From: Lytechinus pictus
Lineage: Eukaryota
DNA: 64,000 nt
Direction: 5' to 3'
Assembly: GCF_037042905.1 (NCBI RefSeq)
Contig: NC_087250.1
Span: 4,714,001 to 4,778,000, forward strand
Shown here: positions 1,549 through 51,573 of the stretch, in pieces
How positions within the stretch are numbered: position 1 is the stretch's first letter
Layout: the number at the start of each line of letters is the position of its first letter
Notes under the pieces: model-generated
What the model was told of the DNA's origin: nothing
Seen by the model: only the letters and a program-made list of their open reading frames with translations
The model's database searches: none
Program-made: the position numbers and the translations under genes

Positions 1549-1673
1549 TCACGAGGGTGGGGGTTTCTTCGGTGGATTTACACGCAGAATCGCCTTGAGG
1601 TCCTGTACGATTCGAAACTCGGAGGCTGTTCGACCAAGACTAGCAATCGATTCCACGTCAGTCATGTAGAGAT
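1549..1673 (-). CDS. PDZ-IL-1-like gene, terminal coding exon (last beta-trefoil strands plus Pro/Lys tail)
   Basis: Acceptor cccctacag|. The phase-1 frame reads (D)LYMTDVESIASLGRTASEFRIVQDLKAILRVNPPKKPPPS-TGA; the other two frames stop within a few codons. The phase matches the upstream exon 9278-9392. Confidence 0.75.
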
Positions 1674-2475
1674 CTGTAGGGGTAATTGGACAAGATAAGG
1701 TTAAACGGGCCTAATTACAACCGGCAGGCAAAAGATATTCATTTGAACCAACCCATTCTCATTGTTTTTTTTTTATTTAATATTGCTGATTGACAAAAAT
1801 GAATGAATATGATTGACAATCTAACACTCATTCTATAGGGAGGGTACCTACTGAACTTCTTTTTTCCAAATCGGAAAGATATATCACTACTTTGGAACTA
1901 TTTTAAATGAAATGAAATGAAATTTTTTTCACTGGCGGAAGAATTAGGGCTATTTTACTCTATCAAGTGATAAATTGCATCCTGTCAGGTGTGGTCTTCA
2001 TAAATGCCGATTTTTTTTTTTAATGAGCTGGTCGGGGTACCCTTTTCTGGTCAGATATGGAATGTCAGACATATATCTGTGGGAATATTATAACGACTTG
2101 ATTGAAGACTAACACATGCACAGTGAAACGGAGTAAAGTCACACAACAAACCATATTACTACCCTTGTATTATCTGTTTATTCCGAGTGATTCTACAATA
2201 TCTTGTCCACTGGTAGTAAACACTCAACCCTCGAATTTCCTCTAAAAGTGCCACTTTAACACACGAGTCTATGGGAAATGAATTAGGCCTGTGATACCAT
2301 TGCAATAATGGACAATTCATTAATGGCGAGTTATTGCACCGCCACGCCAAACGAATTCAAGAGCACAATGAAATGTATTGAAATATTAATAATAATAATC
2401 AAAGATTTGTATAGCGCACATATCTGTCGATGACACTCAAGGAAATGCAAATCAAATCACAACGAACAGCTGATA

Positions 2476-2973
2476 AAGGTCTTTGTCAAAAGTTGGTGAA
2501 CCGGAACAGCAGTTTCGTCCTAAATTAAGATTCGGAGCTGAAAAAAGGGCGAATACATCGTTTGTTCAGAGTCCAGGACGAAACTGATTCGGTTGTTTGG
2601 TTTTGCGCCATTGAACCCTGCAGTATGTTAAGCATTCTCGGGAATTGTCCCGTCTTGTAAAGTCCCTAAAATCAGGTTTGGTTGTAGGATTGATTATACA
2701 GACAATAATGAAGACAACTTCGTGAGAAACTGTGCTACAATAATGATAATAGGGATTTTGTTGCATCGCCGCGCAAAACGCTTTCAAGAACACAGCAAAT
2801 GTATTGTCAAGTGCCCTACGTGACAATTCAAAGAACAACTAAGAAGTCTTTTTTGAAAATTGGAAAATCGAAACAGTATGTTCTGGAGTCGGGACAAACG
2901 AAATATTTGCGTCAGCTCCAATATTCAGGACGAAACTCCTGTAGCGGTTCACCAATTTTCGACAAAAAGTCCT
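2476..2973. mobile_element. Old MITE with degenerate ~60-bp TIRs
   Basis: ctttgtcaaaagttggtgaacc...gtttcgtcct at the left end versus aggacgaaac...ggttcaccaattttcgacaaa at the right end. Confidence 0.5.
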
Positions 2974-3023
2974 CCCCAGCTGTGCTTTGTCATTTGTCGG
3001 GCATTTCCAATGTATTAACTCAG

Positions 3024-4367: not shown

Positions 4368-5087
4368 ATGACCACTAGGAGTATGGCCATGGAGAAATCA
4401 ACGGCAACTATGGTGTCTGCGGTGATTAAAGACATTCTCACTGATCCTAGGTTTGAAAGTGTTGTGGCTGGTCATATAGAGAAACGTCTGTTAGATATCA
4501 AGGAAGAACTACAAACCCAAGAAGCACGTATTCTTGACCTAGAATCAACATCGAAATCCAAGAGCGCTGAAATTGAATCCCTTCGATCCCAATTGGAAAC
4601 CCGAACGAACGCTTTAAATGCCTTGAACAATCGTCTGGAAGGTCTGGAGCAGTATTCTAGGAGAAATTCCCTTCGCTTCTTCGGCATTAAAGAATCACCT
4701 GGTGAGAACACAGATGACATCATTATAAAGCTTGCCACGGATAACCTGAAGATGAATCTGCGCAAAGAGGACATCGATCGCAGCCATCGCATAGGTCCAC
4801 CCAAGGAGTCCACCTCTGAAAACACCAAACCACGGGCTATCATCGTTAAGTTCTCTTCGTACAGGAAACGTCGCGAGGTCATCGGAAACCGGCGTAAATT
4901 AGCAGGTAAACGAATGTCCATCTTAGAAGACCTGACTGCAAAGAATGCTGTTCTTCTCAATGCCGCTCGCCTTAGTCCTAAAGTGAAATCTGCATGGTCC
5001 ATCGACGGTCGAATATTTGCATTACCAAATACTGCTGGTAGCGTGAAGAAACTCTTAACTTGTAAGGAAGATATAAACAAGCTCTGA
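4368..5087 (+). CDS. LINE ORF1p (coiled coil + RRM + CTD, Transposase_22-like)
   Basis: Motifs LEQYSRRNSLRFFGIKE, IDRSHRIG, PRAIIVKF, ILEDLT and AWSIDG. First in-frame ATG at 4368. Confidence 0.9.
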   Translation: MTTRSMAMEKSTATMVSAVIKDILTDPRFESVVAGHIEKRLLDIKEELQTQEARILDLESTSKSKSAEIESLRSQLETRTNALNALNNRLEGLEQYSRRNSLRFFGIKESPGENTDDIIIKLATDNLKMNLRKEDIDRSHRIGPPKESTSENTKPRAIIVKFSSYRKRREVIGNRRKLAGKRMSILEDLTAKNAVLLNAARLSPKVKSAWSIDGRIFALPNTAGSVKKLLTCKEDINKL

Positions 5088-5374
5088 TCACATGTATTGA
5101 TCTGCCATGTATACTTCTGGTTGACTCTTACCATTTATCCTCCTCACTATGAAACTGGACTCTTATCTCGAACTTTTTGAACTTTATAGCTACTTTTTTC
5201 CCACTTTGGCGGGACCAATGTTATTTGTAATACTGTATAGAATGTTTTCATATTTTGCATGTTTCTTGTTTCTCTTTCCTTATTATTCTCAACTACTCTG
5301 TTTTGTCTCAACTATTCCTCCTGTATCCTTTTCCTGTTATTTCTATTACTTTATTCTATTGCTTACACAACTTG

Positions 5375-8300
5375 ATGTCAGGTGATGATTTCTACAGTTG
5401 TAATACCAATGCTCCTTTGCAATTTTCATATATGTATGATTCTGTATTCCCTTTTCAGGGTATAGGTGACGATGAATTCAGTGCAATATTTCAAGATACA
5501 GTGACATGTACAGATTTTGATAGACATATGTTTAATGAACTCTCACAAAATAACGATGAATTCCATTTTAGCAGATTTCTTAACTGTAAATATTTTGTTG
5601 ACGACGATTTTACCTCTCAGTTCAACGACGTTCATAATCATTTTAGTATTCTTCATTTCAATTCTCGTAGTCTAAACAAAAACTTCAATGCTATCTCTAC
5701 TTTCATATCCACTTTGTGTATCGATTTCTCAATATACGGTTTCTCTGAAACATGGATCTGTAAAAATACTCCTTTGTTATTTAACATTCCAGGTTATTCT
5801 TTTGTCCACTCTAGCCGTCAACATGGCAAAGGTGGTGGTGTTGCTTTATTAGTTTCTGATACTTATAATTTTAATATCCGTAATGATTTTTTACAACCTT
5901 CAAATAATTATGAATCACTTTTTATTGAAATTGACATGTTTAGAGAAAAGAACATTATAATAGGTGTAATATACAGGAAACCTCAATCAAATATAAATGA
6001 ATTTTCAACCATCTTTGAAAATTGTTTAAACAAGCTTGATTCTGAAAACAAACAGGTTTATTTAATGGGTGACTTCAACATAGATATTTTGAAGTATACT
6101 AATGCTACTATAAGTAATTTTCTCAGTATAATACATTCTCACTTCTTTATTCCTTTAATTGACAAACCTTCTAGGGTTACTGCTGGATCTATGTCACTCA
6201 TTGATAATATATTTACCAATAATTTTGATTTAAATGTTTCCTCTGGTCTATTCTACAATGATATATCTGATCACTTCCCTATTTTTCAAATAACACAGAA
6301 ACAATTTCCTGTCCATGGTATTCCTGAGCTTAGTCTACGTCTTATCAATGATGATACTATTAATGCATTTAAACATGAGCTCCTAGATTATGACTGGACT
6401 AAATTATTTGATATTACTGATACAACGCTTGCTTTTGACAAATTTCTTGATACTTTTACTCTTTTATACAATAAAGTTTTTGTAACAAAATCATATAAAT
6501 CCACCCGTAAAAAATTAAAAAGCCATGGATTTCTCCTGATCTTTATAAAAAAATCAAAGATAAGAATAGAATTTATAAATCATATATATTAAACCCTTCT
6601 GAAAGCAACAGGCAAAAATATGTTAAAGCAAGAAACCATATAAATAGGTTATTAAGGTATGCTCGTAAAGACTATTACAAAACTAAATTTTTTGCAATGA
6701 AGGGAAATATGAAACAAACTTGGCGGCTCATCAATGATATATTACATAAAACAAAAAATAAATTACCAAATTACATCAATGCTGATGGAAGGCGAATCAC
6801 AGATTTTAAAGAGATAGCTGATTTTTTTAATACTTATTTCGTCAACATTGGTTTATCTTTAAACAATTCAATATCCCAGACTTCAAACAGCTCTGATAAT
6901 TTTACCAAATTCTTGCCCATGCAAAATTCAAATTCTCTTTACTTCAAACCTATTACTGAGAGCGATATCACTGATGTTGTTAAAAAGCTAAACTGTACAA
7001 ATAGTTGTGGCATTGATAATTTTAATCCTCGAGTTATAAAGAATGTTATATATTGTATAGTCAAACCATTATGTTTTATCTTTAATTTGTCTATTTTGAC
7101 TGGTATTGTACCTTTCAAATTAAAGATTGCAAAAGTTATACCTGTTCATAAGAAAAGTGATGTTCATGATGTTTTTAATTATCGACCAATTTCCATACTT
7201 CCTTATTTTTCAAAAATTCTGGAAAGGCTTATTTACAATCGACTTTATGATTTTTTATGTACAAATTCAATTTTAAATGAATGTCAATATGGTTTCCTAA
7301 AGAATGTATCAACCGAAATGGCTGTAATTGATTTACACGATTATTTAATTAATGTTTTCAATAAAAAACTTTACTCTATTGGAGTATTCTTAGACTTAAG
7401 CAAAGCTTTCGACACCATTGACTTTTCAGTACTTATATCAAAACTTTATAATTATGGAATAAGAGGGTTACCTCTTCAGTGGTTTCAGAATTATTTATAC
7501 AATAGAATTCAATACGTTTCTTTTAACAATATTTTGTCCAACCCATTAGAGATTTCATGCGGCGTGCCCCAGGGGTCAATCCTCGGGCCCCTCCTTTTTC
7601 TGATATATATCAATGACCTGCCTTTTCGTTCTGATAAATTGAAATTCATTTTATTTGCTGATGACACCAATATTTTATTTACTTCAAATGATATTACTTC
7701 TCTATATGACACATTAAACATTGAATTATTGAAAGTTTCGAACTGGTTTAAATGTAATAAATTGGTAATTAATGCTGATAAGTCTAACTTCATATACTTT
7801 TGTTCCCAATATCGACGTTTATCAGCAGATATCCTCGATTCATTTAAATTGGAAATGTCAGGAAACTATATCAAACGTGTTACCTCAACCAAATTCTTGG
7901 GTATTACTATTGATGAAAATTTATCTTGGAAAACTCATATAGCCCAAATTAACAAAACAATATCTAGAAATGTTGGTGTCATCAGCAAACTTCGCCATGT
8001 CTTGCCTCAATCCGTTTTGCTAATGTTATACAATACTCTTATTTTACCGTATCTCAGTTACTGTAATATTGTTTGGGCAAATACTCATCCAACCAAACTC
8101 AAATGTTTATACCTCCTGCAAAAGAGGGTTGTCAGAATAATTACACTTTCTCATTATCAAGCCCATTCTAGCCCACTATTTAAACAACTCAATATATTAG
8201 ATGTATACCAGTTAAATGACTATATGTGTGCAATTCTCATATTTAAACATGTAAACACTCAACTTCCTAAATACATATCGGATATGTTTGTAAAGAACAG

Positions 8301-8499
8301 TTTAATTCATACTTATAATACTAGAAACAGGAATCAATACCACAGATGGAATGTGAATACAGAATTTACTTTTTATTCATGTAGGCATCATGCTCCTACA
8401 ATCTGGAATTCACTCCCTACATTTATAACCTCTATTTCATTTTATAACAGATTTAAGCACAATGTAAAGCTATATTTGATCAAACGTGACTCTCGTTGA
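5375..8499 (+). CDS. LINE ORF2p, AP endonuclease + reverse transcriptase, with one -1 frameshift at ~6509-6514
   Basis: APE motifs HFNSRSL, SETW, GGGV, MGDFN, IDNIF and SDHFP; RT motifs YRPIS, QYGF, DLSKAFD, GVPQGSILGP, FADDT and FLG. Adding one A to the A6 run joins the two ORFs (KKIKKPWISP...). Confidence 0.9.
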
Positions 8500-9277
8500 A
8501 GTTTAAATGATTTTTGTCTTCTTTCCTTTCAACCCCCCCCCCCTCTGCTTTTCATTCTCTCCTACCCTTTTCATGTATGTTTGTTCTGGGTTAGTCTTGG
8601 TGCAAGACGCAATTCATTTTTATTTACTGAATATTTACTGAATTTGTTCTCCGCTTTTATTAATTGATCAAATCTTATGCAAGTACGGGAGCTGTCTTGA
8701 CAAGACCTTTACGGTCTTTTACAGCTATACCTAATTTCAATACTTTTCTATTCAATACGCATGTACATACCATTCATATACTTTATTTTATCTTGAATTG
8801 CATTTTTTATCCAATGTGTTGTTATAAAATGTTTTTAATATTGGAATTGAATAAAGTTGAACTTGAACTTGAATCGGCTTTTGGTTTGCGTTTACACGTT
8901 GTTACAGCTCGCGGTTCAGAACCGCGAGCCGATGCAAAAACCTGAAATGATACGCACACCAACAATATACGTCATAATAAAGACAACGCTGGATCAGTGC
9001 GCTTACAATTACGTCACAATGGTAAAGTAAATGAAATGCGCACAAATTGCCGATGCAGAATCGGCTTTCTGTTTACACGTAGTAAAAAAGCCGATTCTGC
9101 ATCGGCTCGCGGTTCAGAACCTACTACTTTGGTGGTGCAAATTGCCGGTTCTGAACCGCGAGCCGATTCAAGTTGCTCGCGTTTACACGCTATGAAAAAG
9201 CCGATTCAAATGCCGATTAAGTGTAAACACGGTAAGAGTCATACTTCAATCTTTGTGAAACAGCCTCAACGTCTTAC

Positions 9278-9392
9278 CATTAGTGTTGGCTGCCTTGATT
9301 ATGGCTGAACCGGTAGGAGGCAATGTCAAGAAAAAGAACTTGTTATTCTGTGGTATCTGGAAACGGGGATTTGTCATCCAGCGAGGAAACTC
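9278..9392 (-). CDS. PDZ-IL-1-like gene, exon (KFFF strand region)
   Basis: Acceptor ctctctctattgtcag|, donor |gtaaga. 115 bp, phase 0 to 1; only one frame is open: EFPRWMTNPRFQIPQNNKFFFLTLPPTGSAIIKAANTN. Confidence 0.85.
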
Positions 9393-10199
9393 CTGACAAT
9401 AGAGAGAGAGGGAGGAGTGAGATTCGTATAGCTAAGGCTGTGCATTGTTTTACTTTAACAAAATAACGGAAACCGGGATTCCCAGTTATATTTCTCAAAA
9501 TAGCCAAACGATTTATAGTCTTTCATTTTTCATTTACATCATCATAATATTCAGGTTGTCTTCTTTATTTTGATACCAACTTTTTTATATGAATATTTAA
9601 CGTCAGATGTAGGACTAGCAAGAAGTGTTTGAAAATTCAATGTCAAAACCAAGTTGCGCAGGAAAAATGGGTCGAGATTTGTTAAAATCTTTAGTTGTTT
9701 TTTTTTTAAGTTTATTTCACTAAAGATGGGAGTGGGTTCAGATTCACAAGTGAGTTTCTACGCAAATCGTTTCTGACAAGCTTCCGTATTCATTTTTATT
9801 CATCCAATGCGTGAACAGTTCAGTAAGTATTTGGTCTCGAATCAAATTTTAGATTCCACTCTTACTATTGGTGTTTAATTTTATTTCATTTCATTTCTTC
9901 TTTATTTCACAATCTGACTAAAAAGTCAGGCTATGATAAAATAATATTTAATTGTTGTTAAATTGTCTCTAAGGACACGTTTCGTATTCTGTTGGACACA
10001 CTATACAACATGACAACCATGAGTGTAACTATTAAATAAGGAAAATTTGAGTTTGATGAATTTATGACATATTTTAACCTAATTTAACAAAAATACGCAA
10101 AAGTAAATAGATCAATGGAAATTAGACAACCCCATAAACAGATCAAATTAAAAGCAAGCCATAGGAGGTATTAGACATTGTGTTAGTTCGACCAACACA

Positions 10200-10525
10200 A
10201 TGATGATGATGATGATGAAAATGATGATGACGACGAAGATGATGATGATAATGATGATGATATAATGAAGATGATGGTGATGATGATTATGATGATGATG
10301 ATGATGAAATGATGATGATGATGATCATTAATTCATGATCATGATGATAGTGATGATGATAACGATGGTGATAATGATGCTGATAATGATGAATACGATG
10401 GTGATGATGATGATGATGATGATAATGATGATAGTGATGATAATGATGATAGTAATATGATGGGGATGATGATGATAATGATGATAGTGATGATGATGAT
10501 GGTGGTGATGATGATCACGATGACT
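10200..10525. repeat. Degenerate (GAT)n microsatellite
   Basis: Visible directly in the sequence. Confidence 0.95.
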
Positions 10526-10621
10526 TTTTCGGCGTTGAAAGCGATGAATAATGGCAGTGTTGCAAAAATTTTCGATTATTATGACGACATCTAAGACGAC
10601 CACGTAGGGCAATGAACTTAC

Positions 10622-10758
10622 TACCACGCGAAGGGGACCCGCAGTGACACCTTTAACGCACATCGGTCTGCGGGGTGACCCGGGTTCGGAGATGGCGATT
10701 GGATCTCCAGGGGGGGTTCCTCCACCTACAACTTGATAGTAGTTCAGGGTCACGTTTT
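10622..10758 (-). CDS. PDZ-IL-1-like gene, exon (beta4-beta7 equivalent)
   Basis: Acceptor ttttctttgtgactttgtcaacag|, donor |gtaagt. 137 bp, phase 1 to 0: (Q)NVTLNYYQVVGGGTPPGDPIAISEPGSPRRPMCVKGVTAGPLRVV, resembling the IL-1 'Y...G.PVAL...LSC...L' pattern. Confidence 0.85.
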
Positions 10759-11262
10759 CTGTTGACAAAGTCACAAAGAAAAGAAAAGATGTCTGCACCA
10801 AAATCTTTATCAGATTGCAGGAGAATGGCATGATGCATCTCGTTATTAGGAGATATTTTCGTTTTAATGAGGTGATATCGTTAAAACGAGATTTAAAAAA
10901 TGTATTTTAATCATCTTCCGCCCGGACTCCGGTACATTCACCAGTACAAAAGGTGCAACTCCGTACATTCACGAGTACAAGAAAAGGCATGTTTCATTCA
11001 CCGTCCTGCCAAATTTACACACGTCACACCATTGCACTCGACTCAAAGGTGTTTAATCAGAATAATGCAAATCTTTAAAATTCAATAACTTCGTTATTTG
11101 TTATCCGATTTTGATGACATTTTTAGCATTTTGCTGTATGAATTTTACTCTATTTATTTCGATATAAATATCTTCAGCCTGGAGCATCCCTTTAAATACC
11201 CCCGCATTCAACTCTTTATATACATGAAGCTACGTCTAGCGTCCATGCCTGAATTCTTTTAC

Positions 11263-11312
<50 letters not shown>

Positions 11313-11407
11313 ACCTACACCCGACAAAATAAATTATAATTGGTATAATGTCGAAAATCTGTCTATCTGACGGTCAATCGGATCGGGGTCGCCCTAGCCA
11401 CTTACCC

Positions 11408-12701
11408 GTCTCTGTGGTCAGTGGTTAAGGCACCGGCGCATGCACAGTGGGCCGGGGCGAAACAAAAAAGCGCCAAAAGTCATTTCGGGCAATTTCAGAT
11501 TTTTAATTTTTGTCATGCCCAGCTGAAAGACAAGACTTTGAAGAATACTTCAGCAAAATATTTCATTCGGGAATTTGCATAAAGATTGTTAATTTCCTAC
11601 CCTAAATCGTAAAATGTGACATTTTGCGAAATGCCGCGAATATGACAACTTAGTTGAAAAACAAGCTATTTCACAGGAGGTTTTTCATGTAGGAATCTGA
11701 AATGGCTCCAACATAATCCTGATATATTCTTTTTTTCATGTGAAAGGGTTCAAAGTAGATAAAAGACACTTTTAAGGAGGTTTATAGGATAATTATTCCT
11801 CGAAATAGGCTGATAATCCATGTTTTTTGCATTTACATGAGAAACGTTTCGATTTCCGTGAATTTCCGTTTAAATTCTATCATCATCATTTTGCCCGATG
11901 TCTAAGCTTTAATTCGATACCAAATTTAGCTGCCCGTTTTGCCCGTTTTTATGTTAGAGCCGATTTTACTTAAGACATCACCCCCAAAACCTGTTCAAAA
12001 ACGGTTATTTTTATACAGCGCAGTCATCGCAGCGCACCGTGTAGGGTGTACATTGCCGTTCATTTTTGCAATTTTGCACGGCGGGGACGATTCCCCTTCC
12101 ATTCCATGAAATTCCGGGCATAATGTTAACAAAATGAAGGTTGATAATGCATAAGGGCTACCCAGCCCTCTTCCAGAATTAAAAGTTACTTGTAGAATAA
12201 TTTCAGCCCAAAACCCTCCTCGTAGTAAAACATTCGTGATGTTATATACTCCGCGTTTTACCCAAGTCTACACAGCTTGATAAAGCACGGTTAATATTTT
12301 TCAGATTTTCAAGTATTTTTTTAATCCAATGATCATTTTGATGCCATAAAATTATTTTCAGGATCTCATACACACTTTTTAGGCATGTGAGCAGCATAAA
12401 CCAACATTCACTCTGGTCAATCTCAAAGTAACACATAACACAAAGTTTATATACTGCACATTATTTAGCGTAATATTCCTTTTCACAGAGGTTTTAAGTA
12501 GCCAATCTAAATTTGGTATCAAAGTGACGTCATATGGGCGTTGAATTATGTTCAGTCGATTCTACGCCAAAAATAACCCTTAATCAACATGTTAAAGTAA
12601 AAATATAACACGGAAAATAATTTTGGCGCACTGTCAACTCATTCTGGCCCACTGTGCGGCGTTCCAAGCTGGGGGCCCGGGTTCGATTCCCGGCAGAGAC
12701 A
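11408..12701 (+). pseudogene. tRNA-Gly(TCC)-like cloverleaf, interrupted by a transposon
   Basis: Joining 11408-11438 with 12662-12701 gives 71 nt: acceptor stem GTCTCTG/CAGAGAC, A box TGGTCAGTGG, anticodon arm CCGGC-GTTCCAA-GCTGG, T arm CCGGG-TTCGATT-CCCGG, followed by TTTTTT. Confidence 0.8.
11443..12656. mobile_element. Non-autonomous Transib-like element with RSS-like termini
   Basis: CACAGTGGGCC...GGCCCACTGTG, with a second block GCGCCAAAA at the same offset in both ends. CGGCG is duplicated (11434-11438 and 12657-12661). Confidence 0.8.
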
Positions 12702-14028
12702 TTTTTTCGGCATCACCAAATTTTTCCAAAGGGCAGATAGCTCTGGGGAACCTTGATTTAAGCTACGCCTACCATTGTTCTCTTCATCCATTTCTTTCAA
12801 AAAATGTTTAAAGTATACATCCAAAGAAAATTCACGAAAGTGATGATTATAGACAAATTATATATGAATGGAAAGGTCTTGTCTTTTTATACACAAATAT
12901 GTCACTAAAAAGTATTATTGATGTCGTGGAAATGCAAGAAATGAAATTATTAGAGACCCTTCTCAGCCCCCCAGCCGCCCCCAGACAGACAGTCACGCGA
13001 TCAAAAACAGTCGAGAATAATGACGTCACATGATCAACTCATCACTCTGTGCAAGCCAGCAGTACACTGATAGCTGAATCACCTTCCTGGTCTCTATTTT
13101 TCTTCGAATTTACCGTTTTCTTCATGTATTGTAATATCCGAATTCTGTTTTCGACAACTTCAGACTATAAGGGAACCAGAACTGTGTTATTTTGCCCGTT
13201 TTTTATTGAATTGTGAACTAGAAAGATCGATTTTGTCCACTCGACACGACAGTCTTCGTTGTGTTGCTCTACTAACTATTGAAAAACTCCAAGCTGCACG
13301 GTCCCATTCACTTGCTCCCGATGCATGTTGCAGGCTACGCTGTTTGATCCAGTCAAAAGTCAAGGTAAGCATGTTTGGAAACTGTACTTGTTCTGACGAT
13401 GCATTCAGGTCAGATGACAGATACAGATCTGATATAAGTTTAGAATCATGCATTTTGGCATAACTACTATTAACAAAATTAAAACGTTTTTATTTTAGAA
13501 ATAATGTTTTTGCACAATTCCAGCAGATTTTTCTTCAGATTTCTAAAACTGGTCAGGACTCAGGCAGGCGATTAAATTATTTAGGAGCACTGGTATGGAC
13601 CATGGCTGAAAATCTGCTGTTTCAGAGGAATGTTTAAGTTTTTATTATACACAGAATTATATCACCATGATGCCGATGTCATGAAGCCAGACAAATTTTC
13701 AGCAGTGATTACACTGATTCCTGGCCAAAATCACTCACACGTATTGCGAGGTTAGTATTAGTATACTAACCTCGCACCACGAACCGCGTTTGGCAGTGGA
13801 TTTCTAACTAGTGGGTCGCGCGTGCTGGGATCTCACTTCTTGGGTCCACGACTTCTATGGCTTGAATTTTCTGTGCGCGGCGGCATGTAATGAACCCTTG
13901 GGTGGGCCAAAATTAGAGTCTGGTGTTTCTTTCTGATTAGAGTGTTGCTGTATATATGTATGCGTAATGCCTTCAACAATGAAGATAAATGCAATCTTTG
14001 TAATGACACAGAGACTCAGAGAGCACCG

Positions 14029-14177
14029 TACCTCAAGTGATGTTCGTGTAGTCTCCACTTCACTACTGCTACAGCCTACACTACGCTACACACCTACCCG
14101 GGTAGGTGTGGCGTACATGTACGGTAGTGTAGCGGTAGTGAAGTGGAGTGGGGCCTACACAAACATCACTTGAGGTA
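14029..14177. mobile_element. 149-bp palindromic hAT-like MITE
   Basis: TIR TACCTCAAGTGATGTTYGTGTAG; 8-bp TSD GAGCACCG. Confidence 0.9.
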
Positions 14178-14375
14178 GAGCACCGGTGTTCTGAGTGGAA
14201 CTTTTCAGGTGTCTAAACCTACTATCATTTGTTGTTGACCGGGAATTACATGCCACCGCACGTCATCAATCAGCACGATAATTAAATTCATACTTTGATT
14301 TGATTATTTAAACTATTTCTTTTTTTCTCTCTTCTACACACAGATCTGCACACTTGCTGACTCTGGTGACTTCTG

Positions 14376-16417
14376 GGGCCCGTTTCATAAAGGTACAGCG
14401 TCAGCGTCAAGTCCCAAAACAGCGTCAAATTTTCACTTGCAGCGTCAAATTTAATATTTGACGCTGCAGCGCATTTCATAAAAAGTTGACGCTCCAGTGG
14501 GAGCGTCAACTTTTTACTGGAGCGTCAAGTATGGTTACTGGAGCGTCAAATAGGGTAAAATATTTGTCGCTGGTCATAGGGGAGCGTCAAGTTGACACTG
14601 TAAAGGGTTTTTCATTGTTAAGAATGGCGTACTTTGTGCTCAGGCATGCCCAAAGGACTCTTACAAGAAAACGGATATTTAGAGCAATGTCTGTGATAAT
14701 TAATAATGGTTACACTTCGTAATTCCGAAGGTTCTATATTTCGAAGGTTCGTAATTCCGAAGGTTCGTAATTCCGAAACACGTAAATTGCCTATACCTCG
14801 ATGTTCGTCAATCCGAACATTTGTGGCGTTATTCCGAAGGTTCGATAATCTGAAAACGAAATAAGGTTCGATGTTCCAATGGTTCGTTAGTCTGAAAACG
14901 AAATAAGGTTTGTTAATCATTATGTTTTCGGAATCACGAACCTCATTTTGTTTTCGGATTAACAAACCTTCGTAATTACAAACCTCACTTTGTTTTCGGA
15001 CTAACGAACCTTCGGAATAACGAACCTTATTTCGTTTTCGGACTTACGAACTTTCGGAATTACGAACCTTCGGAATAACGAACCTTCGGAATATGCGAAC
15101 CATTGGAATAACGAAGCTTCGGAATTACGAATGTATGCGTTAATAATGCTAATAACATGAATAAAGAATATATTAAGGGAACGCTTTCTAGTAGAAATGC
15201 AGTTTCTTTTTTGTCCTACCTACCAAAAAAAAATTGTTAAAAAATTCTTCCGAAACAACAAATTTTTCAGTTTATCACAGGGCAGGCCAAGGAAAAAAAA
15301 GGGAAGTTATAGACAGACTTTAAAAAAAGAAGACAAATGGAGAGGATTTTTTTTCTTGTAGGAAAAAATAGAGGAAGGTAGATCTATCATGTGGAAGTGT
15401 TTAATTTAAAGCCTAAATTAAAAAAAGTCCTAGGCCATAAAAAAAATGATAAAACCTTTTTTTCTGTTTCTGACTTTCTCAACAACAAAAAAGTCGTGGC
15501 CATGGCATTGTGGAATCCGTTTACTTTTAAAGTTTTAGTTTACGGTACTGAATGGTTATTCGCCGTTGAAACCGATAACTTAAAAATATTTCCATTATGA
15601 ACAAAAATAATCTTTTAAGGTCATTTTCGATGTTTCATACATAATTAGAGCCTACAAATTTACTTGCTTCAGGGTGATTTTTAATAGCACTGCACCAGCA
15701 GTGGCCTGCGCCTGCCTTGTTGTTGATACAACATTGCATTACCGACACAAATAGTCAAGTGTGGGACTGGGATGGAAATTGTACGGTATAAACTTTGTTG
15801 AAGGTGAAATTTCGACCGGCAATAATAATAAATTTTCCCCCTTTTTAAAATAATTTTTTCCCTGGCATAGGGCTAAATTAAATCAATTCTCTGAAAACTT
15901 ACACAATGGAGAAACAATGCTATGCCATCCTGTGACAAATTGATATTTTCTTCTTACTCTCTTCTAGAATTGCAAACTATCGCCATAGAGCCATCACTCT
16001 GCTTCAACTGCTAGTCTTATGCTGCAGACCCTGTTTGCAGCTGCTAAATAATAATTTCGCTCCCGAAAAAATTAATAAGCAAAAAAAAATAATAATATTC
16101 TCTTTCAATTTTTTTTCTTCTAATTTTGCTTCTCAAAGGGGGGGGGGGGGGCACGGGCCGGCTGTGCCCCCCCCCCCCCCTGGATCCGCCAGTGCTTTCT
16201 ACCTAAACTTATGACTTGAATTGAAAACAAAAAACTGGAGAGAAAGGGGATTTCCCCCTAATCAGCCTCGTACATGACTATTCAAATAAATAGCTGGAAA
16301 GTCAAGCTGACTTTCCAGCGAATGTGCTTTTATGAAATGCAAAGTTGCTAGCATAGCAAGCAAAAGCTGCTATTCTACCAGAGTTGCTATGATAGCAACT
16401 CTTTATGAAATGGGCCC
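14376..16417. mobile_element. PIF/Harbinger-like non-autonomous element
   Basis: GGGCCCGTTTCATAAAG / CTTTATGAAATGGGCCC, flanked by CTG and CAG, with AGCGTCAA subterminal repeats at the left end. The two ends could belong to different copies. Confidence 0.55.
14709..15139. mobile_element. Foldback/Mutator-like MITE with modular TIRs
   Basis: Tandem TTCGTAATTCCGAAGG units on the left, inverted on the right; TTAATAATG duplicated at 14700-14708 and 15140-15148. Confidence 0.8.
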
Positions 16418-18537
16418 CAGGTCTCTGCTTGCTACCTCAATCTGGGAGATTCCATCATGTCCTTTTTACTATGATTTGGATATAGCCATTTTTTTCTTCA
16501 CTCTTTCCAGGACCTACGGTTTGCAAGTTGTGGACTGATAATGATACAAAAGAAAAATGTTCTTTATCAATCTTGGAAACAATTTTGAGCACAGTTTTGG
16601 AGAGAACTAAGAAATTTGACTTGGACAGGAATACAGCTTGTCAAAAATAATAACACACAATTTAAACGAAAGAACAATTTTAATGTTACTAGGGCATTTT
16701 GCGAGAAATTTTATACTCAATCACACCATCACACGTCCCAAATCAAGGGTAAGTCCTTTGATTAAACATGTAGTTGAATTGCGATTGCAACTCGACCTTA
16801 TTACGCTTGAATTTGAATTTAAGACTTACGCTTGATTTGCAATTGAACATAAGTTTCTTGCAGTGCCCCATAATTATGTTTTGTTATCAGATATTTAACG
16901 TGCTGATTTTTCTCGAAAGGTATAATATATTTGTCCTTTTAAACGGTATTTGAATATGGGTACGCCTTTTATTTGTTTTCCACAATATTTATTGTATGTA
17001 TGAACAGAAGTGAAATATTTATTGTGAAGCACTGTGAATGTTGTGTGATGGTTCATCATTTTTGTTATAAGACTGAAAGCCTGGTGGATGTGAGGAAGTG
17101 GCCTGGATGAAAGAAAAGTGAACATGTGTCCAATTTGCATATTCTAAGACAATTTTGTTTCTGGATAAATTTTGCTATGCATTCCCTACATTAAGAGTAA
17201 AGGAGAAGTCCACGCAATCAAAAATTCATTTGAATTCAAAGAAAAATAACAAGATATTGCAGGAAATTTCATAAAAACTTTGATTCAAATTTATATAAAT
17301 ACTATTTTAATAGTTCCGTAAATATAACCTATTGTGATCAGATGAAGAGTTTCCTATCGTCAAATCTGCAAAGAATAAAAAACAAAATGCCACAAAAAAT
17401 AGAAACGAATGTGATGTGAGTGACAACTCTAATTTGCATTGTTTTGTGTATATTACTGTTTTGAGTAAAAACAACAAGGGAAATTACTCTATTCAAATAA
17501 TTTTTAGTTGATGTGGACTTGACTTTTAACTCTACCCCTCCCATCCCAAATAAGAGTAGAAATAATCTAATCAAGAACTTGAAAATCAAAAGCAGCAATT
17601 AAGAAGCAAGATTTCATAAATACAGGTCTGAATACAATTTCACAAGAAAATAAAAAGAGAAAAAAAGATGGGTAGTTACGGGGAAGGAATAAAAAAAAAA
17701 GTACCCAGAAAAAAAAATCCGAGTTTCGAACCAGGGTCCTCGCACATGACAAAACAATGGCCAACACATTTGGCCACAGACCATCACCCTACCGGGAGGC
17801 ATTTTTAAGATATATGAAAGAAAGTCCGCTCGCCGCTGTTTCCTAATAATGCTTCGGCAATTCAACTGCATTTTCAGTCATTTCGCGATGGATATTGCCG
17901 TGTTTTTGTGTGGTTCCTGACTTCGCTACTTAATGAAATTTCATAATTTTTGTTCAGTCATAAAGAAGAATGTCTATGCTTTATATTGATTATAACATTA
18001 ATGTGACGCAAGTGTGATTTCTACGTGAAAATATGCTTTGTTTATTCACATATATTTCTTGAAAAAAAAAAAATTCTAAGCTAAATATCGGTTACCAAAA
18101 TACGTTAAATGTGCATTTTTTTTTCACTGTTCAGTAAATTCAAGCTTTTATCTATATAACAAGACCAATCTTCAGAGGAATAAACAATTCTAAGAGCAAA
18201 AAACGCTGATTGGAAAGATCGTCTCCAATTGGCTGCTGTCAGCTCAGCTGCTCACTGCTCATTGTGTGACGTCACTCAGCTGGAGCTCGCAAGAGGACCG
18301 GTGGAGGGCAGAAATATGGCATGAAAATAAATCATTTTTGAGAGCTGATTTCTGCAATCTCTGATCACTATTTTGAAAAGTGAAGTTATTTATCTGATTA
18401 GTAATACTTCCCCTTACAATGATGACCACATAAAGTCATTATAAAATACTTTTGATTCTTCGGATGTATACTTTAAATAAAAGAGTTGCCAAAGCTGTTG
18501 TACATGTATAATTTCACCAAAAAAAACCCCCCAAAAA

Positions 18538-18568
<31 letters not shown>

Positions 18569-18609
18569 CTATATATATATGTATTTATTTTTTAAAATAA
18601 TAAACTTAC

Positions 18610-18828
18610 GGCGTGTCAAAACGTACGTTGCCAGTCTTTTACCGATCTTTGTGAATAGATCGTGGCTCTTTTCAATGAGTTCAACTTGTTCTTGGCTCTT
18701 ATATTCATAGGACGGTTTCACATCAAATGCAGTCTTGGCCGAAAGTAATTCAATGAAAGAGTTGTCCTCACTTCCGCTGTCCAACAGATGCCTTGAAATG
18801 GTTTCCACAATCGGTCGTCCATCTATCA
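18610..18828 (-). CDS. PDZ-IL-1-like gene, exon (linker plus beta1-beta3)
   Basis: Acceptor tgttgtgcttcatag| (an in-frame alternative AG gives a start at 18822), donor |gtaagt. Phase 1 to 1: (V)IDGRPIVETISRHLLDSGSEDNSFIELLSAKTAFDVKPSYEYKSQEQVELIEKSHDLFTKIGKRLATYVLTR. Confidence 0.85.
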
Positions 18829-18926
18829 CTATGAAGCACAACAAAAGGTTTTTTTTTTCTTCATAAATTCGACTCGTCATATAAAAAAAAAAATGCGAGC
18901 CATATTTTGTATCCTCAACAATAATT

Positions 18927-19432
18927 GACTATCTGAATATAAAAACGGCCCAAGTCCAAGTTTTGGCGAAATTAGGTTAAATATGGGAAATTTATCCTTA
19001 TTCAATGACTCATCTTGTGTATAAATGATAAATCTGAAATCATCTCAGAAATCCCTTAAATTAAGGAGGAAAATCTGGTATGAGTGTAAGAAAAGCCCAA
19101 TTCCAAGTTCAGGACTTGGGCTTTTCTTATATCATAGCGCCCTCTCTCATTACTTCTACTACTTACTACAGAATCCTACCATGTTTATGAATGTAAGAAT
19201 GTTCATATGATTACAAATACGACTCAGGTTTGCCAGACAAAAGGCCCCGCCCATCAGTAACGTGAATATCAATTTTCATTGAAAATGAACAATTGAATTT
19301 GTTTTATGATGTTCTCTGATGTCTTTTGGCCAAATATACTTCAATTGCCCAAATTAAAAAAATAAGTTTTTTTTTTTTTATTGTCTCGAAATGACCTCCA
19401 ATAGACTTGGGCCTTTTTATATTAATATACTC
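18927..19432. mobile_element. Sola-like MITE
   Basis: AATT|GACTATCTGAATATAAAAACGGCCCAAGTC ... GACTTGGGCCTTTTTATATTAATATACTC|AATT; 4-bp TSD. Confidence 0.75.
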
Positions 19433-20152: not shown

Positions 20153-20219
20153 CTTTTTCGTTGAGATGGAAAGCATATAACCACTTCTCCTCGTCTTGGT
20201 GCTCTTTCCGTTTGATAAC
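20153..20219 (-). CDS. PDZ-IL-1-like gene, small exon (end of PDZ)
   Basis: Acceptor ctttctttgaattgtag|, donor aag|gtgtga. 67 bp, phase 0 to 1: VIKRKEHQDEEKWLYAFHLNEK. Confidence 0.7.
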
Positions 20220-20502
20220 CTACAATTCAAAGAAAGTTGAGCAAAACACTTTTTATGGCTACAGTAGACTTAGGCCTTTCGGAACTCGTATTTCGAGTCA
20301 TCATCCATTTGTCTCTCTTATTACTATTCTTAATTTAATTATCTATATTTGGGGGCAATTTTATGCCTCAAATACAGAGAAAATGCTGATCATTAGAAAT
20401 ACTAGATATATCAATATCATAACTGCTCGTAAACTTAAAGTATGCAGAAATCACGCCCTTTCTTTTATTATCAGATACAATATTGCGTTCATTGACAATA
20501 AA

Positions 20503-22059: not shown

Positions 22060-23084
<1,025 letters not shown>

Positions 23085-25540: not shown

Positions 25541-25577
<37 letters not shown>

Positions 25578-47952: not shown

Positions 47953-50900
47953 TATGTAATAAAGCATGGATATAAGAGCATAGTCTTTACCCCAGACGCT
48001 GTTATATAAAAAAAATAGGAGATTTTCAATTTGAAGGCCCCACCGTCTCATCCCTGTGAAAAAATGGATATAGAGTGTAGTCCTTACTCCAAACCTGGTG
48101 ATTAAAAAAAAAATTCAATACTAAGACCCCATCATCTTCCAAACTAATAGTCTATAATAAAACACGGGTATATAGCATAGCCTTTATTCCATACCCATTT
48201 ATTAAAAAACTACACTGTACACTGTATACCCACTGCATACTAGTAATTACACTGAATACCCATGTGCTACATTACAGGGTCTTAGTATTGAAGATGACGG
48301 GATTGAAGTTTCGAAGATACTTGATTTTTTTTCTTCAAATGATTGGGTCTGGAGAAAAGAATGCACTCTATATCCATATGCTTGGTTTAGAAGATGGTGA
48401 GGTCTAAGTTTTAAAGTTTATTTCCCTTTTTTAACCACCGGGTCTTGAGTAAAGACTACGCTTTAATCTAGCTCAGGTATGGCGTTAATCCTGATGCTTG
48501 GAAGAGCATATGGCCAAGAGTATAAAAAAGTAGACTAATAACATTCATCGTGTACGGTACGGTCGCATTGGGTCAAGAAAAAGAAACTACCAGCATTCGT
48601 TTCGTATGGATTTGTCACAAATTAAAGGGTCTAAAAAGTAGAGTAGCACCCTTTGTCTCATACAGAATGGTCCACTAGGTCTGAGAAAATAGATAAATGT
48701 TCATCCAGGGTCGGCGGAGCGAAATTGAAAGTGGGAGGGGGGGGCACAGGGAAAAAATGGCACTTCCTCTTTTGAAAATGGCACTTGAAACAAAACAAAA
48801 AAACCCAAATAGCATATGTATACCCTAGTAGGGTAATGAACAAAATAATTGAGGGGGCAGACATGGCGTATGGGGCAACATTTCTTTAAAACGGCGAGCG
48901 AGCAAAATTTTGAAACTTTTAATGAAAAAAATAGCATTTGTGATAGATTTTAACCTAGAGAACAATTTCATATTTCACCACTTTTCTTTTATTTTCTGCT
49001 TTTTTTTCTTGGTCTTGAAAACTTTTGGGGTCCATGGATCGAGGTTCAATTTTAGGGGGGGGCAATGCTCCCCCTTCCCCCGGTTAAGATGCCCCTGCAG
49101 AAAAGAAAGGACGCTAATTGCAAATACATATAACTTATATTAGCAAACTGGACATTTGAACAAATCAGAAGAGAAGGGGCATTTATCAGAAGTAAACAAG
49201 GACATATTCATATGGGGCACTTGATCAAAGGTGAAAATGTACACACTGCAGAAGAAGAATTTCATTCTGAAAAGGGGTAACTAAAAGGGGCTAGAAGAAC
49301 ATTTTAAAAGGATTTTTATTATTTAAAAATGCACTTTTAGAAGGGATAAGAACGCGAAATAGGGAAAACGGGCGATGATCGGGCGTGAAAAGAGCGGTTT
49401 TAAGAATGGAAACTCATCTGATACGAGAATGGGCACTTATAAAAAGGTAAAGGGGAGCTCTTTAACACATAAAACGGACCCTTCTAAGATGAAAGGGGCT
49501 GAACGCGTTGTAAGGGGCATGGTTCTTGGGTTAAAAGGGGAAAACTTTTTAGTGCTTCAAAAAGTGGTGGCACTGTGCACCCCCTGCCCCCCCCCCCCCG
49601 GATCGCCGCCCCTACATTCATATCATATGGAAGCAGTCGTTGTAAAATCGAGGAAAACGTGTATGAATTACAACTTAAAAATATTACATTTTGAGCGTAA
49701 AGTGCACCGCATCTGTATATAGTTCAAAATTAATGCCTTATGTTGGTGAAGTGCGCCATGACATTTGTGGGAAATATTATTATATACGTTAGTGGGTACA
49801 GTGTTTTTACATATGTGGCTGTTATTACACTAGTGGGCGTTTGTACATCACTCTGGGTGTGTAAAAGGTGTTAGCAAACAATACCTTGTTTGTATATTCA
49901 TAGATTCATAACAATTAATATCCAAGACTATAGTAATCAAGAAATTTTGGGTTTAAAAATAAGTTTTAAAGAAATTCGACAACTTCTGATGAAATCTGGA
50001 AATGAAAACAACAGATCAAGTTCAATGTGTGGATCAGTGGAAATCATGCTTGCCTCCCCCACCCCCTTAATTAGTTACCCCATGCAGTGTTCGAAACAAT
50101 ACTGAATGTCCCTTTAAGCCTGGTGCCGCCCCCCTTCCACCCTGGCCTCTTTGAAAAACGTTTCATTGCCAATGGTCTTGAGCCTACTCCCTGTTCAGGC
50201 AGAAATAGTCTTAATCTGGATAAAAAACAGTGATTTGCACATATCCCGGAAGTTTGCACATTTCCCGTGAAAATTGTTCATTTGCACATATCCCGTCGTC
50301 ACGTTTACACAGATGCCGTTGATAAATTTTGACAGATTTGCACATTTCCCGGCGTGGCGTATGCACAAATTCCGTTGTTTCCACAAATCCAGGCGACATT
50401 TTGCACATATACCGTTGTTTACACATATCCCGGCGTTTGCACATAACACGGCTCCAACCCCCCCCCCCCCCCCCCCCCAGAAATGAAAATTGGCGGAGCA
50501 AAACAAAAGAAGAAAAGGGAGAAATAAAGGAAAAAAAAGAAAGATAGAAAGAAAAAAAGACGAGGAAAGATTTGAATCAATTGAAAAAAAATCAGACAAG
50601 CATAATGCTGAAAATTTCATCAAAATCGAATGTAAAATAAGACAGTTAATTGAAATTTTTAAGTTTCGCTTAGTTTTCAGAAATGGTTACATGCACAATA
50701 TTTAGTCACAAGTAAATTAAAGAATTGATGATGTCCCTCACTCACCATTTCTTATGTTATCGGTTTGAATTATCCAATACTTCAATTTTTACCGATTTGA
50801 CAATAAGGACCAACTTGACTGAACCATAAAATGTTAAACAATGGTAATTCTACATGTTCAGGGAGAAACTTTGTTTCACAGGACAATGATGAAAAATTTA

Positions 50901-51486
50901 GAATAATCTATATTTCATATATTAAAATAAAAATAAACAGTGAGTGAGTGATGTCATCCGTTTCATAATTTGCACACCGAAATTAAGCGAAACTTAAAAA
51001 TGTCATAGCTTTCTTTTTTTACATTCGATTTTGATGAAATTTTCAGTGTTATGCTTGTCGGATATTTCTCCTTTTATTCCAATCAACTTTTTGTTGGGGT
51101 GGACTTGTCCCTTACATAAGCATATAAGATTAAGAAATAAGAAAATAACATTTTCATAAATTCCTAATAACTAAATTGGCCCTTTTTCAAAATGGAATAT
51201 CGGCAAGTTTCATCTCACGCTTAGGAATAATAGGAAGATATTCATCATTTTTATATGATGACAAACTGTCCTTAGAATGTCCCGGTCCTTGGTCAAAATA
51301 ATAAAAATATCAGCTCGCGCTTCGCGCTCGCATCTTTTATAAAGTGTGATCCCTTCCACTTAGAAATTTTCCTACACAGTGCTTGAAATAGTGCTTAAAG
51401 ATATTTAAAACATTTAGTTCAGAGTTAGGGTTTTCGATCCATATTTCGGATTGAGGGCTGGGTTCACTTCTCCCCGGCCCGGTCAC

Positions 51487-51573
51487 CACATTCCTCTTGA
51501 AAATAGGAATTTTACGTTCTTTAATTAGGCTCACTCCTGTCAAGTTAAACGAAAAGCCTTGAAAGTGTAACAT
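51487..51573 (-). CDS. PDZ-IL-1-like gene, probable 5' coding exon (PDZ betaA)
   Basis: ATG at 51573 (gcaATG) reads MLHFQGFSFNLTGVSLIKERKIPIFKRNV|gtgacc, phase 0, in frame with the exon at 24554. RKIPIFK fits the first PDZ strand. The 5' boundary is uncertain (alternative acceptor at 51536). Confidence 0.5.

Follow-up and report, generated by a model that had tools for sequence, protein, structure and literature searches.

A probable IL-1anc-type gene, LOC135154474, in the sea urchin Lytechinus pictus, and its unlisted relatives

Introduction

Does a stretch of 64,000 nucleotides from the sea urchin Lytechinus pictus (NCBI RefSeq assembly GCF_037042905.1, contig NC_087250.1 (C6 in the coordinates below), positions 4,714,001 to 4,778,000, called the window below) encode an invertebrate relative of the interleukin-1 (IL-1) cytokines, in which a PDZ domain is followed by a beta-trefoil? 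The question was raised by an earlier reading of the letters alone (the original prediction), in which eight small minus-strand exons between positions 51573 and 1549 were joined into a protein of this kind. The minus-strand gene in question is NCBI LOC135154474, "uncharacterized protein", with a RefSeq protein of 303 aa (P0001). It had been called hidden; the locus was in fact already annotated by NCBI, although only as an uncharacterized protein. We put the probability that LOC135154474 is an IL-1anc-type gene at roughly 80%, and the gene and its clade are an unlisted addition to this already published family.

The proposal of IL-1anc as the invertebrate root of the IL-1 cytokines dates only from 2025-2026 (Fontenla-Iglesias et al., Nat Ecol Evol 2026, PMC13736523). 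According to that paper, its members combine an N-terminal PDZ domain with a C-terminal IL-1 trefoil, have no signal peptide and can be traced from cnidarians to fish. The PDZ plus IL-1 architecture that the original prediction had named for invertebrate 'IL-1anc' proteins is thus described there, and the window protein is homologous to listed members. The fish protein given there as 'nIL-1Fm', in the original prediction, is the lumpfish nIL-1F, for which the paper gives the same architecture; it is a vertebrate orthologue in another syntenic setting, and the window protein is likened to it by description only. For both L. pictus and S. purpuratus, the published catalogue contains five genes. 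For L. pictus, the assembly Lp3.0 was included, and LpicIL-1.1 to 1.5 correspond to LOC129278821, 129278820, 129260727, 129260728 and 129279149, respectively.

Gene model

LOC135154474 has eight exons on the minus strand, spans ca 50.5 kb and is intact in a homology-based model guided by its paralogue LOC129263531 (P0002, 394 aa). This model is open across 399 codons with canonical splice sites and yields a protein of ca 399 residues, consisting of a disordered hydrophilic N-terminus, a divergent PDZ domain, a conserved beta-hairpin linker, a 12-strand IL-1-like beta-trefoil and a short tail. The exons are the following (a slash marks an exon boundary):

52049-51765, minus strand: exon 1, with the ATG at 52049, 95 codons and donor GTAAGA, phase 0; disordered hydrophilic start M-E-V-H-G-S-K
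24584-24436, minus strand: exon 2, in which the PDZ domain begins, with the ...YFGA... loop; acceptor ...ACTCAG/CTT, donor in phase 2
21673-21565, minus strand: exon 3, central part of the PDZ domain; ends in phase 0; 100% identical to P0001 and P0002
20219-20153, minus strand: exon 4, in which the PDZ domain finishes and the beta-hairpin linker (...KWLYAFHLNEK) begins; ends in phase 1
18828 or 18822-18610, minus strand: exon 5, linker and trefoil strands 1-3; donor GTAAGT, phase 1
10758-10622, minus strand: exon 6, trefoil strands 4-7; ends in phase 0
9392-9278, minus strand: exon 7, trefoil strands 8-9; ends in phase 1
1673-1549, minus strand: exon 8, trefoil strands 10-12 and an 18-residue tail; stop TGA at 1551-1549

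The introns 1 to 7 measure 27,180, 2,762, 1,345, 1,330, 7,851, 1,229 and 7,604 nt.

That the gene is real follows from two observations, namely that exons 2-8 coincide with an independent gene model and that each of them is conserved in the paralogue. A search with the longest exon peptide (72 residues) returned three proteins at E<=0.001 among 53 candidates, the best being P0001 with 100% identity, and when this NCBI model was mapped back to the window, exons 2-8 as originally joined were 100% identical to it. In tblastn, the paralogue matches exon by exon with E values between 4e-8 and 6e-27.

The chain of eight GT-AG exons in matching phases was correct in its arithmetic, with a stop-free frame of 978 nt, seven GT..AG introns and an exact translation, but its exon 1 is intronic and its exon 2 starts at the wrong place. 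Both boundaries of exons 3, 4, 6, 7 and 8 and the donors of exons 2 and 5 are borne out by the NCBI model or the paralogue.

The first exon originally proposed (51573-51487) was rejected. It lies 190 nt into intron 1 and has the weak donor GTGACC, the other donors of the chain being good, and its counterpart in intron 1 of the paralogue is ca 95% identical, like the flanking intron, with a 4-nt indel and a TAA in the place of a GAA codon of the window. The N-terminus is instead encoded by 52049-51765, which matches the paralogue: tblastn of residues 1-86 of P0002 finds it at E 7.5e-32, and the 150 nt upstream and downstream are 93% and 98% identical to the paralogue, respectively. In LOC129263531 and its L. 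variegatus counterparts, the first exon encodes 86 residues. A putative core promoter element can be placed upstream of this exon:

52085-52092, minus strand: TATAAATA, 36-43 nt upstream of the ATG at 52049, in the stretch that is 93% identical to the paralogue upstream

The paralogue has AATAAATA at the same upstream place, and it is possible, judging from the sequence, that TATAAATA acts as a core promoter element.

For exon 2, the start at 24554 was 30 nt too late, as the supposed acceptor sits within codons for ...IFVQ/YV...; P0001 and P0002 both align from 24584/24587, and the intron position and phase are as in LpicIL-1.4. Exon 3 is identical to the paralogue in 107 of 109 nt, and its phase is common to LpicIL-1.4. 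The acceptor of exon 5 is either 18828, as in the original prediction and the NCBI model, or 18822, which corresponds to the only AG of the paralogue (homologues read ...EK/DGRP); both are in frame. At the other end of this exon the original prediction did better than NCBI: the donor at 18610 keeps 11 residues that are found in every full-length homologue and falls at the position of an LpicIL-1.4 intron, while the NCBI model uses a GTAAAA after 18643, 33 nt upstream, and loses these 11 residues, including trefoil strand 3. In exon 8, the window gene has 12 nt fewer than the paralogue in the loop between strands 10 and 11, and a 5-nt indel just after strand 12 shifts the frame of the tail.

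The NCBI model also begins with a different coding exon:

26404-26381, minus strand: NCBI alternative first coding exon, 8 codons, donor GTAGGT; inside the 27-kb intron 1 and common to no homologue

Because of the weaker internal donor and of a first exon that no homologue has, the RefSeq protein of LOC135154474 is probably not the main product.

C-terminal beta-trefoil and PDZ domain

We now turn to the two domains. Two proteins were folded as stand-ins for the window protein, namely the C-terminal 201 residues of the paralogue, which is 81% identical to the window protein (with an alignment of 24 rows), and the NCBI isoform of the window gene. For the paralogue domain, AlphaFold gives a mean predicted local distance difference test score (pLDDT) of 80.6, with values above 90 over residues 38-185 of 201 (ca 148 residues), and the model has 12 strands and a short helix. 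A Foldseek search of the PDB with this model gave 32 matches at E<=1e-3. All rows listed from ranks 1-31 are IL-18, IL-1beta or IL-1alpha, with E values of 5e-6 to 9e-4 and target template modelling (TM) scores of 0.61-0.80, apart from 4hjj_A, a chain of 157 residues from an antibody complex that goes unnamed in the title of its entry. The first other fold family, the N-terminal domain of the ryanodine receptor, appears at rank 32 with a TM score of 0.42.

With the NCBI isoform, the trefoil is modelled at lower confidence (pLDDT 49-66 in places and 49-53 over residues 261-290), as is to be expected with one strand absent from that isoform. The all-against-PDB search with VIA-align nevertheless places IL-1 family members at ranks 1-6, namely IL-1alpha (13.7), IL-36gamma (11.5), IL-33 (11.3), IL-37 (10.7), IL-1beta (10.5) and IL-1Ra (10.4), followed by FGF8b at 9.9. 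A language-model search with the paralogue domain has IL-18 clusters first (score 0.90) and 14 of its 30 matches in the IL1 set. IL-1 family chains come first in three structural searches as well as in this one.

These models leave no reasonable doubt that the C-terminal domain folds as a beta-trefoil. Its nearest kind is IL-1, although by a margin of only a few Z units over other trefoils. The check by AlphaFold and Foldseek that had been proposed thus came out as anticipated, with a PDZ fold plus a trefoil whose best structural matches are IL-1 and IL-18, not FGF, ricin or fascin. The trefoil is encoded by exons 5-8, with strands 1-3 in exon 5. The strands listed in the original prediction correspond to strands 4-12 of the paralogue model, and the domain starts ca 35 residues earlier, in exon 5.

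The PDZ hallmarks that had been noted at the N-terminal side are upheld by both sequence profile and structure. A profile of 24 family members searched against the PDB finds the Shank3 PDZ domain at E 2.6e-7, with PDZ domains of Shank, PSD-95, Scribble, NHERF3 and SNX27 up to 1e-3, and 12 of the 24 members match Pfam PDZ individually at E<=1. In the AlphaFold model of the NCBI isoform, residues 11-130 have pLDDT values of 80-95 and the PDZ part aligns to PDZ structures. With single sequences the signal is fainter: phmmer of P0002 against the PDB sequences gives only five weak matches (best Tiam1 PDZ, E 0.29). Pfam finds no family at E<=10 for any of the eight single-exon peptides, a null result that is uninformative because the exons are too short. 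An N-terminal PDZ domain is, according to these models, present.

Compared to the canonical domains of Shank, PSD-95, Scribble, CASK and PALS1 (PF00595/PF17820), the match is at the level of profile and fold, and the Φ-G-Φ loop reads F-G-A here. The differences are that the window domain stays below the Pfam gathering score (15 vs 23-27 bits) and is followed by a conserved beta-hairpin extension. This extension, residues ca 91-132 of the P0001 model (exons 4-5), is predicted by AlphaFold as long beta-hairpin strands and is the most conserved stretch of the family (...W-L-x-A-F-H-L..., ...R-P-x-V...). Lying between the two domains, these strands may be a continuation of the PDZ sheet and not a floppy linker.

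Relation to the IL-1anc family

The assignment to IL-1anc rests on five traits that occur together, namely the PDZ domain, the trefoil fold, the lack of a hydrophobic leader, homology to listed members and a common gene structure. The absence of a signal peptide, as originally stated, is supported by hydropathy alone, the highest Kyte-Doolittle mean over 15 residues being -0.22 in the first 70 residues.

Homology to listed members is seen in several searches. In phmmer, P0001 was compared to 1.84 billion representatives and matched 18 proteins at E<=1e-3 (8 at 1e-10 and 5 at 1e-30). All 14 named ones are from echinoderms, and the others include the run-assembly protein P0007, the 558-aa metagenome cluster P0017 and the 880-aa P0018 (seven short stretches). 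Three listed IL-1anc proteins are among the matches, LpicIL-1.4 (E 2.2e-17), PminIL-1.3 (1.2e-6) and AplaIL-1.6 (5.9e-4). BLASTP of P0002 against LpicIL-1.4 gives E 2e-22 with both domains aligned, and P0001 against PminIL-1.3 gives 6e-14. A profile search of a word-indexed protein collection (8000 scored candidates) found eight proteins at E<=1e-3, all from echinoderms and including two new S. purpuratus loci.

The gene structure is also held in common. We reconstructed the LpicIL-1.4 gene from the genome (C20:5,455,610-5,465,243, seven exons), and each of its six introns has a counterpart among introns 2-7 of the window gene, at the homologous position and in the same phase (2,0,1,1,0,1).

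The nearest listed members are LpicIL-1.4 (LOC129260728), LvarIL-1.3, PminIL-1.3 (LOC119723835) and AplaIL-1.6 (LOC110982596), which have the same domains, no signal peptide and fewer than 500 residues; like them, the window gene is part of a lineage-specific tandem expansion in echinoderms. It differs from them in that its protein is only 24-29% identical to the nearest listed member, that it belongs to a separate, well-supported camarodont clade, and that its strand 9 reads IKA, not [F/L]ES. The vertebrate IL-1 superfamily (IL-1alpha, IL-18, IL-33, IL-36gamma, IL-37, IL-1beta and IL-1Ra; PF00340) likewise has a leaderless precursor with a non-trefoil N-terminal part. Here, the identity in structural alignments is 9-17%, and the window protein has a PDZ domain in place of the IL-1 propeptide.

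Paralogues and constraint

The paralogue LOC129263531 (C6:4,689,230-4,709,758, minus strand) lies directly downstream of the window gene on the same strand, so that the two form a tandem pair with the window gene as the upstream member. It has the same eight exons and much shorter introns, intron 1 being 1,673 nt compared to 27,180 nt. The two copies differ at ca 10% of their nucleotides. A second tandem pair of the same clade, in the opposite orientation, is located 1.07 Mb away (C6:5,784,729-5,811,757 and 5,820,803-5,866,212, plus strand). It consists of LOC129263514 and a neighbour that is 65-91% identical; older NCBI models split the pair as LOC129263514/5/6.

The phylogenetic tree was built from 18 rows, leaving out the fragments P0009, P0011, P0015, P0016, P0020 and P0035, the isoforms P0021, P0024 and P0031, the superseded model P0008, the NCBI isoform P0001, and P0038 and P0046. 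The window copy, its neighbour and L. variegatus LOC121416645 group together with support 100/100, and the latter two pair at 93/85. Since the paralogue pairs with the L. variegatus orthologue and the window copy falls outside, the sequences suggest that the tandem duplication probably predates the split between L. pictus and L. variegatus. S. purpuratus has its own clade of four genes. The camarodont clade as a whole has support 98/98 and is separate from the LpicIL-1.4 clade, the Diadema clade and the sea star clade.

The constraint on the two copies was estimated from the ratio of nonsynonymous to synonymous substitution rates (dN/dS), by the two-sequence Nei-Gojobori method for the window gene against LOC129263531, with small counts:

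Whole alignment: dN/dS 0.66, with dS 0.13
PDZ exons 2-4: dN/dS 0.26, from 5 nonsynonymous and 5 synonymous changes in 108 codons
Exon 5: dN/dS 1.04
Exons 6-8: dN/dS 0.68
C-terminal domain: dN/dS 0.81

The PDZ domain is thus under stronger constraint than the trefoil. Coding indels relative to the paralogue keep the frame (15, 18 and 3 nt in exon 1, 3 nt in exon 7 and 12 nt in exon 8), the sole exception being the 5-nt indel at the C-terminus. We considered whether this frameshift means that the gene is broken and rejected that reading, because the indel lies beyond the last trefoil strand. In the tail, the L. variegatus orthologue is in the frame of the paralogue, and the tail of the window protein resembles S. 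purpuratus tails.

Predicted myristoylation

The consensus for N-myristoylation is a Gly2 within an MGxxx[S/T] start. An MG-x-x-x-S-K start is found in 8 of the 17 N-termini listed for relatives, covering the L. pictus paralogues, L. variegatus, three S. purpuratus models and two Diadema species (P0002, P0003, P0004, P0006, P0025, P0012, P0032 and P0033), and in these relatives it is likely, by its sequence, to be an N-myristoylation signal. The window copy begins M-E-V-H-G-S-K (52049-52029, minus strand), the second codon being GAA (Glu) where the paralogue has GGA (Gly), and thus lacks the Gly2. The start is a further feature of most camarodont-clade members that is unmentioned for IL-1anc in the main text of PMC13736523, where 'myristoyl' has no occurrence.

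Absence from the published catalogue

In the seven supplementary files of PMC13736523, none of the gene models of this group that were checked is present. For L. pictus, this concerns LOC135154474, 129263531, 129263514/5/6 and 129263511, for L. variegatus LOC121416645 and 121417426, and for S. purpuratus LOC100892317, 100889353, 105442755, 105437773, 105445920 and 100893893. The S. purpuratus models LOC105445138 and 115920486, apparent relatives of LpicIL-1.4, are absent as well. Nor do these files contain four peptide motifs taken from the window gene and its paralogue, or WLFAFHL of other clade members; as a positive control, motifs of LpicIL-1.4 and PminIL-1.3 were found there. In S. purpuratus, at least six loci (P0004, P0005, P0006, P0033, P0034 and P0038) code for PDZ-trefoil proteins that belong either to this clade or to that of LpicIL-1.4, and none of them corresponds to the five published SpurIL-1 genes.

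According to the paper, its screen used PF13180 and looked for FES, and its authors warn that divergent members may be missed. P0001 and P0002 have no match to PF13180 at E<=10, and P0003 matches only at E 0.1. The clade has a PDZ domain below the Pfam thresholds and a strand 9 without FES. It was therefore probably missed through these two requirements.

What was missed amounts to four L. pictus loci (two tandem pairs on one chromosome), at least five S. purpuratus loci and the Diadema relatives; one S. purpuratus relative of LpicIL-1.4 is also unlisted. Repertoire counts, expression analyses and knock-down designs in sea urchins should take in these genes. The conserved, likely myristoylation signal would add a new way to localise a leaderless IL-1-like precursor, and the tandem pair, with a constrained PDZ domain and a fast-evolving trefoil, offers a natural case for studies of ligand diversification.

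Evidence against the assignment

A number of results weigh against the assignment of LOC135154474 to IL-1anc, or against a cytokine function for its product, and they are collected here. Some concern the sequence signatures. Pfam, which the original prediction had named as a check for both domains, gives neither of them above threshold in the single protein. For P0001, PDZ_6 is found at E 0.019 and PDZ (PF00595) at E 0.03, at ca 15 bits and thus below the cut-offs of 27 and 23.2. IL1 (PF00340) has no match at E<=10 in the window protein or the paralogue; only one of the 24 family members, PminIL-1.3, touches it (E 0.0017, 18.4 vs a cut-off of 25 bits). No IL-1 chain is among the best 60 of 265 sequence matches of the family profile in the PDB. 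The strand-9 motif [F/L]ES, which PMC13736523 calls 'largely conserved', is not present in the window protein, where strand 9 reads IKA (...IIKA...) as in the paralogue; clade relatives have FKA or FEA, and PminIL-1.3 has FES in the same columns. The link to the IL-1 superfamily at the level of sequence is thin.

Others concern the structure. The trefoil fold of high confidence is that of the paralogue model, not of the window protein itself, and with the NCBI isoform of the window gene, Foldseek reaches no E value of 1e-3 or lower, IL-18 coming closest at 4.5e-3. Other trefoils (haemagglutinin or lectin modules and FGFs) are only 2-3 Z units below IL-1.

At the level of RNA, three raw RNA-seq runs (same species label, tissue unknown, ca 25% of each) and one contig set were aligned on positions 4601-24600, a stretch that covers the junctions from exon 2 to exon 7. 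In the three runs, the mean depth is 0-0.43 in the bins that hold exons 2, 5 and 7; in other exon bins it is higher, but repeat-associated. None of the expected exon-exon joints is among the 15 listed of 131 joints. Most aligned reads are partial repeat matches of 95-99% identity, and in run X4 this concerns 5392 of 5690 reads that are only partly aligned. For exon 5, no RNA data set is among the matches listed. PMC13736523 reports that several sea urchin IL-1anc paralogues are undetectable in unchallenged tissue; in view of this, and of the unknown tissue of the runs, their silence is weak evidence against the gene.

Finally, the Glu2, the cryptic donor, the extra acceptor AG, the 27-kb first intron and the trefoil dN/dS of ca 0.8 would also be expected of a decaying copy, and receptor binding is, by the account in PMC13736523, yet to be demonstrated for any IL-1anc protein.

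Many reads lie over intronic repeats at 12605-13271, 14606-15272 and 22610-23943, with 95-99% identity, partial alignment and both mate orientations. These reads come from repeat families transcribed elsewhere in the genome, not from LOC135154474. A recurrent read joint from 12797 to 18472 (203 reads in run X4) links two repeat pieces.

Possible function and alternatives

If LOC135154474 is an IL-1anc-type gene, what could its product do? By analogy with the published family and with IL-1alpha and IL-1beta, it would be a leaderless precursor, probably made in phagocytes on immune challenge. The N-terminal part, that is, the disordered region and the PDZ domain, would position or restrain the precursor, and the trefoil would be the signalling end, freed by cleavage or cell lysis to bind an IL-1R-like receptor with immunoglobulin domains. 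Relatives with the MGxxxSK start would probably be N-myristoylated and tethered to the membrane, while the window copy, with Glu at position 2, would lack the tether, provided that translation starts from the ATG at 52049. For the family, PMC13736523 reports that S. purpuratus members are induced in phagocytes on infection, with a cytoplasmic or nuclear localisation, and that only one tested protein is cleaved by a caspase. We found no D-x-x-D caspase motif comparable to the DEPD of SpurIL-1.3 in either the window copy or the paralogue. In this detail, the cytokine mechanism is an analogy that we hold tentatively, at somewhat less than even odds.

One can speculate further that the genes form an ancient, unrecognised echinoid clade, from Diadema to the camarodonts, that would be membrane-tethered by N-terminal myristoylation. 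Within it, tandem duplicates would be drifting apart: the neighbour would keep the tether, and the window copy, with its fast-evolving trefoil and the change from Gly2 to Glu, would go without it. This extended proposal is doubtful. If it were true, sea urchins would hold roughly twice the published IL-1anc repertoire, and the window copy and its neighbour could, for example, be a soluble agonist/antagonist pair analogous to IL-1 and IL-1Ra.

One alternative is an intracellular scaffold, in which the PDZ domain, together with a myristate in the relatives, would sit at membranes, and the trefoil would bind a protein, lipid or glycan inside the cell, the likeness to IL-1 being one of fold and descent only. 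PDZ domains are scaffolding modules, as PMC13736523 also describes them, the hydropathy profile shows no signal peptide, and the MGxxxSK start recurs in 8 of 17 N-termini, including Diadema. The trefoils of lectins, fascin, FGF-homologous factors and IP3/ryanodine receptors are within 2-4 Z units of IL-1, and the same paper shows no IL-1anc protein binding a receptor and a caspase cleavage for a single tested one. However, IL-1 chains come first in three structural searches and in the language-model search, and the published relatives are induced in phagocytes on infection (PMC13736523). The mammalian IL-1alpha and IL-1beta are likewise leaderless and partly intracellular, and since they have these features too, the features do not separate a scaffold from a cytokine. 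We regard a purely intracellular role as rather improbable, while giving it some weight.

A second alternative is that the window copy is decaying or silent: by descent this duplicate would be a true IL-1anc-type paralogue, but it would no longer be in use, and LOC129263531 would carry the function. The Gly2 of the MGxxxSK start is replaced by Glu, the GTAAAA site in exon 5 is strong enough for the NCBI pipeline to choose it, there is an extra acceptor AG, and intron 1 has grown to 27,180 nt, with retroelement ORFs (open reading frames), compared to 1,673 nt in the paralogue. The dN/dS values of 1.04 in exon 5 and 0.81 in the C-terminal domain, the pLDDT of 49-53 over residues 261-290 of the NCBI isoform trefoil, and the three RNA runs without exon depth and without the expected joints among those listed are of the same kind. 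On the other hand, all eight exons are open with canonical splice sites, the indels of 15, 18, 3, 3 and 12 nt keep the frame with the lone exception placed after the last strand, the PDZ exons have a dN/dS of 0.26, and the tree suggests that the copy has persisted since before the L. pictus/L. variegatus split. Silence in unchallenged tissue is reported for published paralogues, and a fast evolution of the trefoil is expected of cytokines, both according to PMC13736523. Taken together, a silent duplicate is unlikely.

The possibility that unrelated fragments line up into an open frame by chance, with no gene behind it, has practically no probability left: the exon 1 of the original prediction was indeed such a fragment and the single exon peptides lack a Pfam match, but exons 2-8 are identical to the independent NCBI model, each have a conserved counterpart in the paralogue and in other echinoderms, and follow an exon structure common to LpicIL-1.4, which refutes it.

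Other features of the window

The introns are filled with transposable elements, as had been stated, with endonuclease and reverse-transcriptase ORFs of a long interspersed nuclear element in intron 7 and reverse-transcriptase ORFs in intron 1:

5231-8499, plus strand: non-LTR (long terminal repeat) retrotransposon ORFs (endonuclease, reverse transcriptase) in intron 7, on the strand opposite to the gene; Pfam Exo_endo_phos_2 E 2.7e-7 and RVT_1 E 2.8e-35
30462-32911, plus strand: reverse-transcriptase ORFs in intron 1, split over two frames; Pfam RVT_1 E 1.7e-8 and 2.5e-26

The window also holds two arrays of ca 450 bp (58208-58658 and 61887-62338), each with ca 29 copies of the same 15-nt unit, inverted and 3.2 kb apart, which resemble the ends of a foldback-type element. 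At ca 58.2-58.9 and 61.8-62.4 kb, ORFs of 154-173 aa were considered as genes and rejected, being translations of these 15-nt tandem arrays; the 'Pentapeptide repeat' Pfam matches of some of them are spurious and arise from the array translation. At the end of the window, a 26-nt tandem repeat (63416-64000, 22.7 copies) continues past its border, with related repeats of 66-94 nt just before it (62877-63145).

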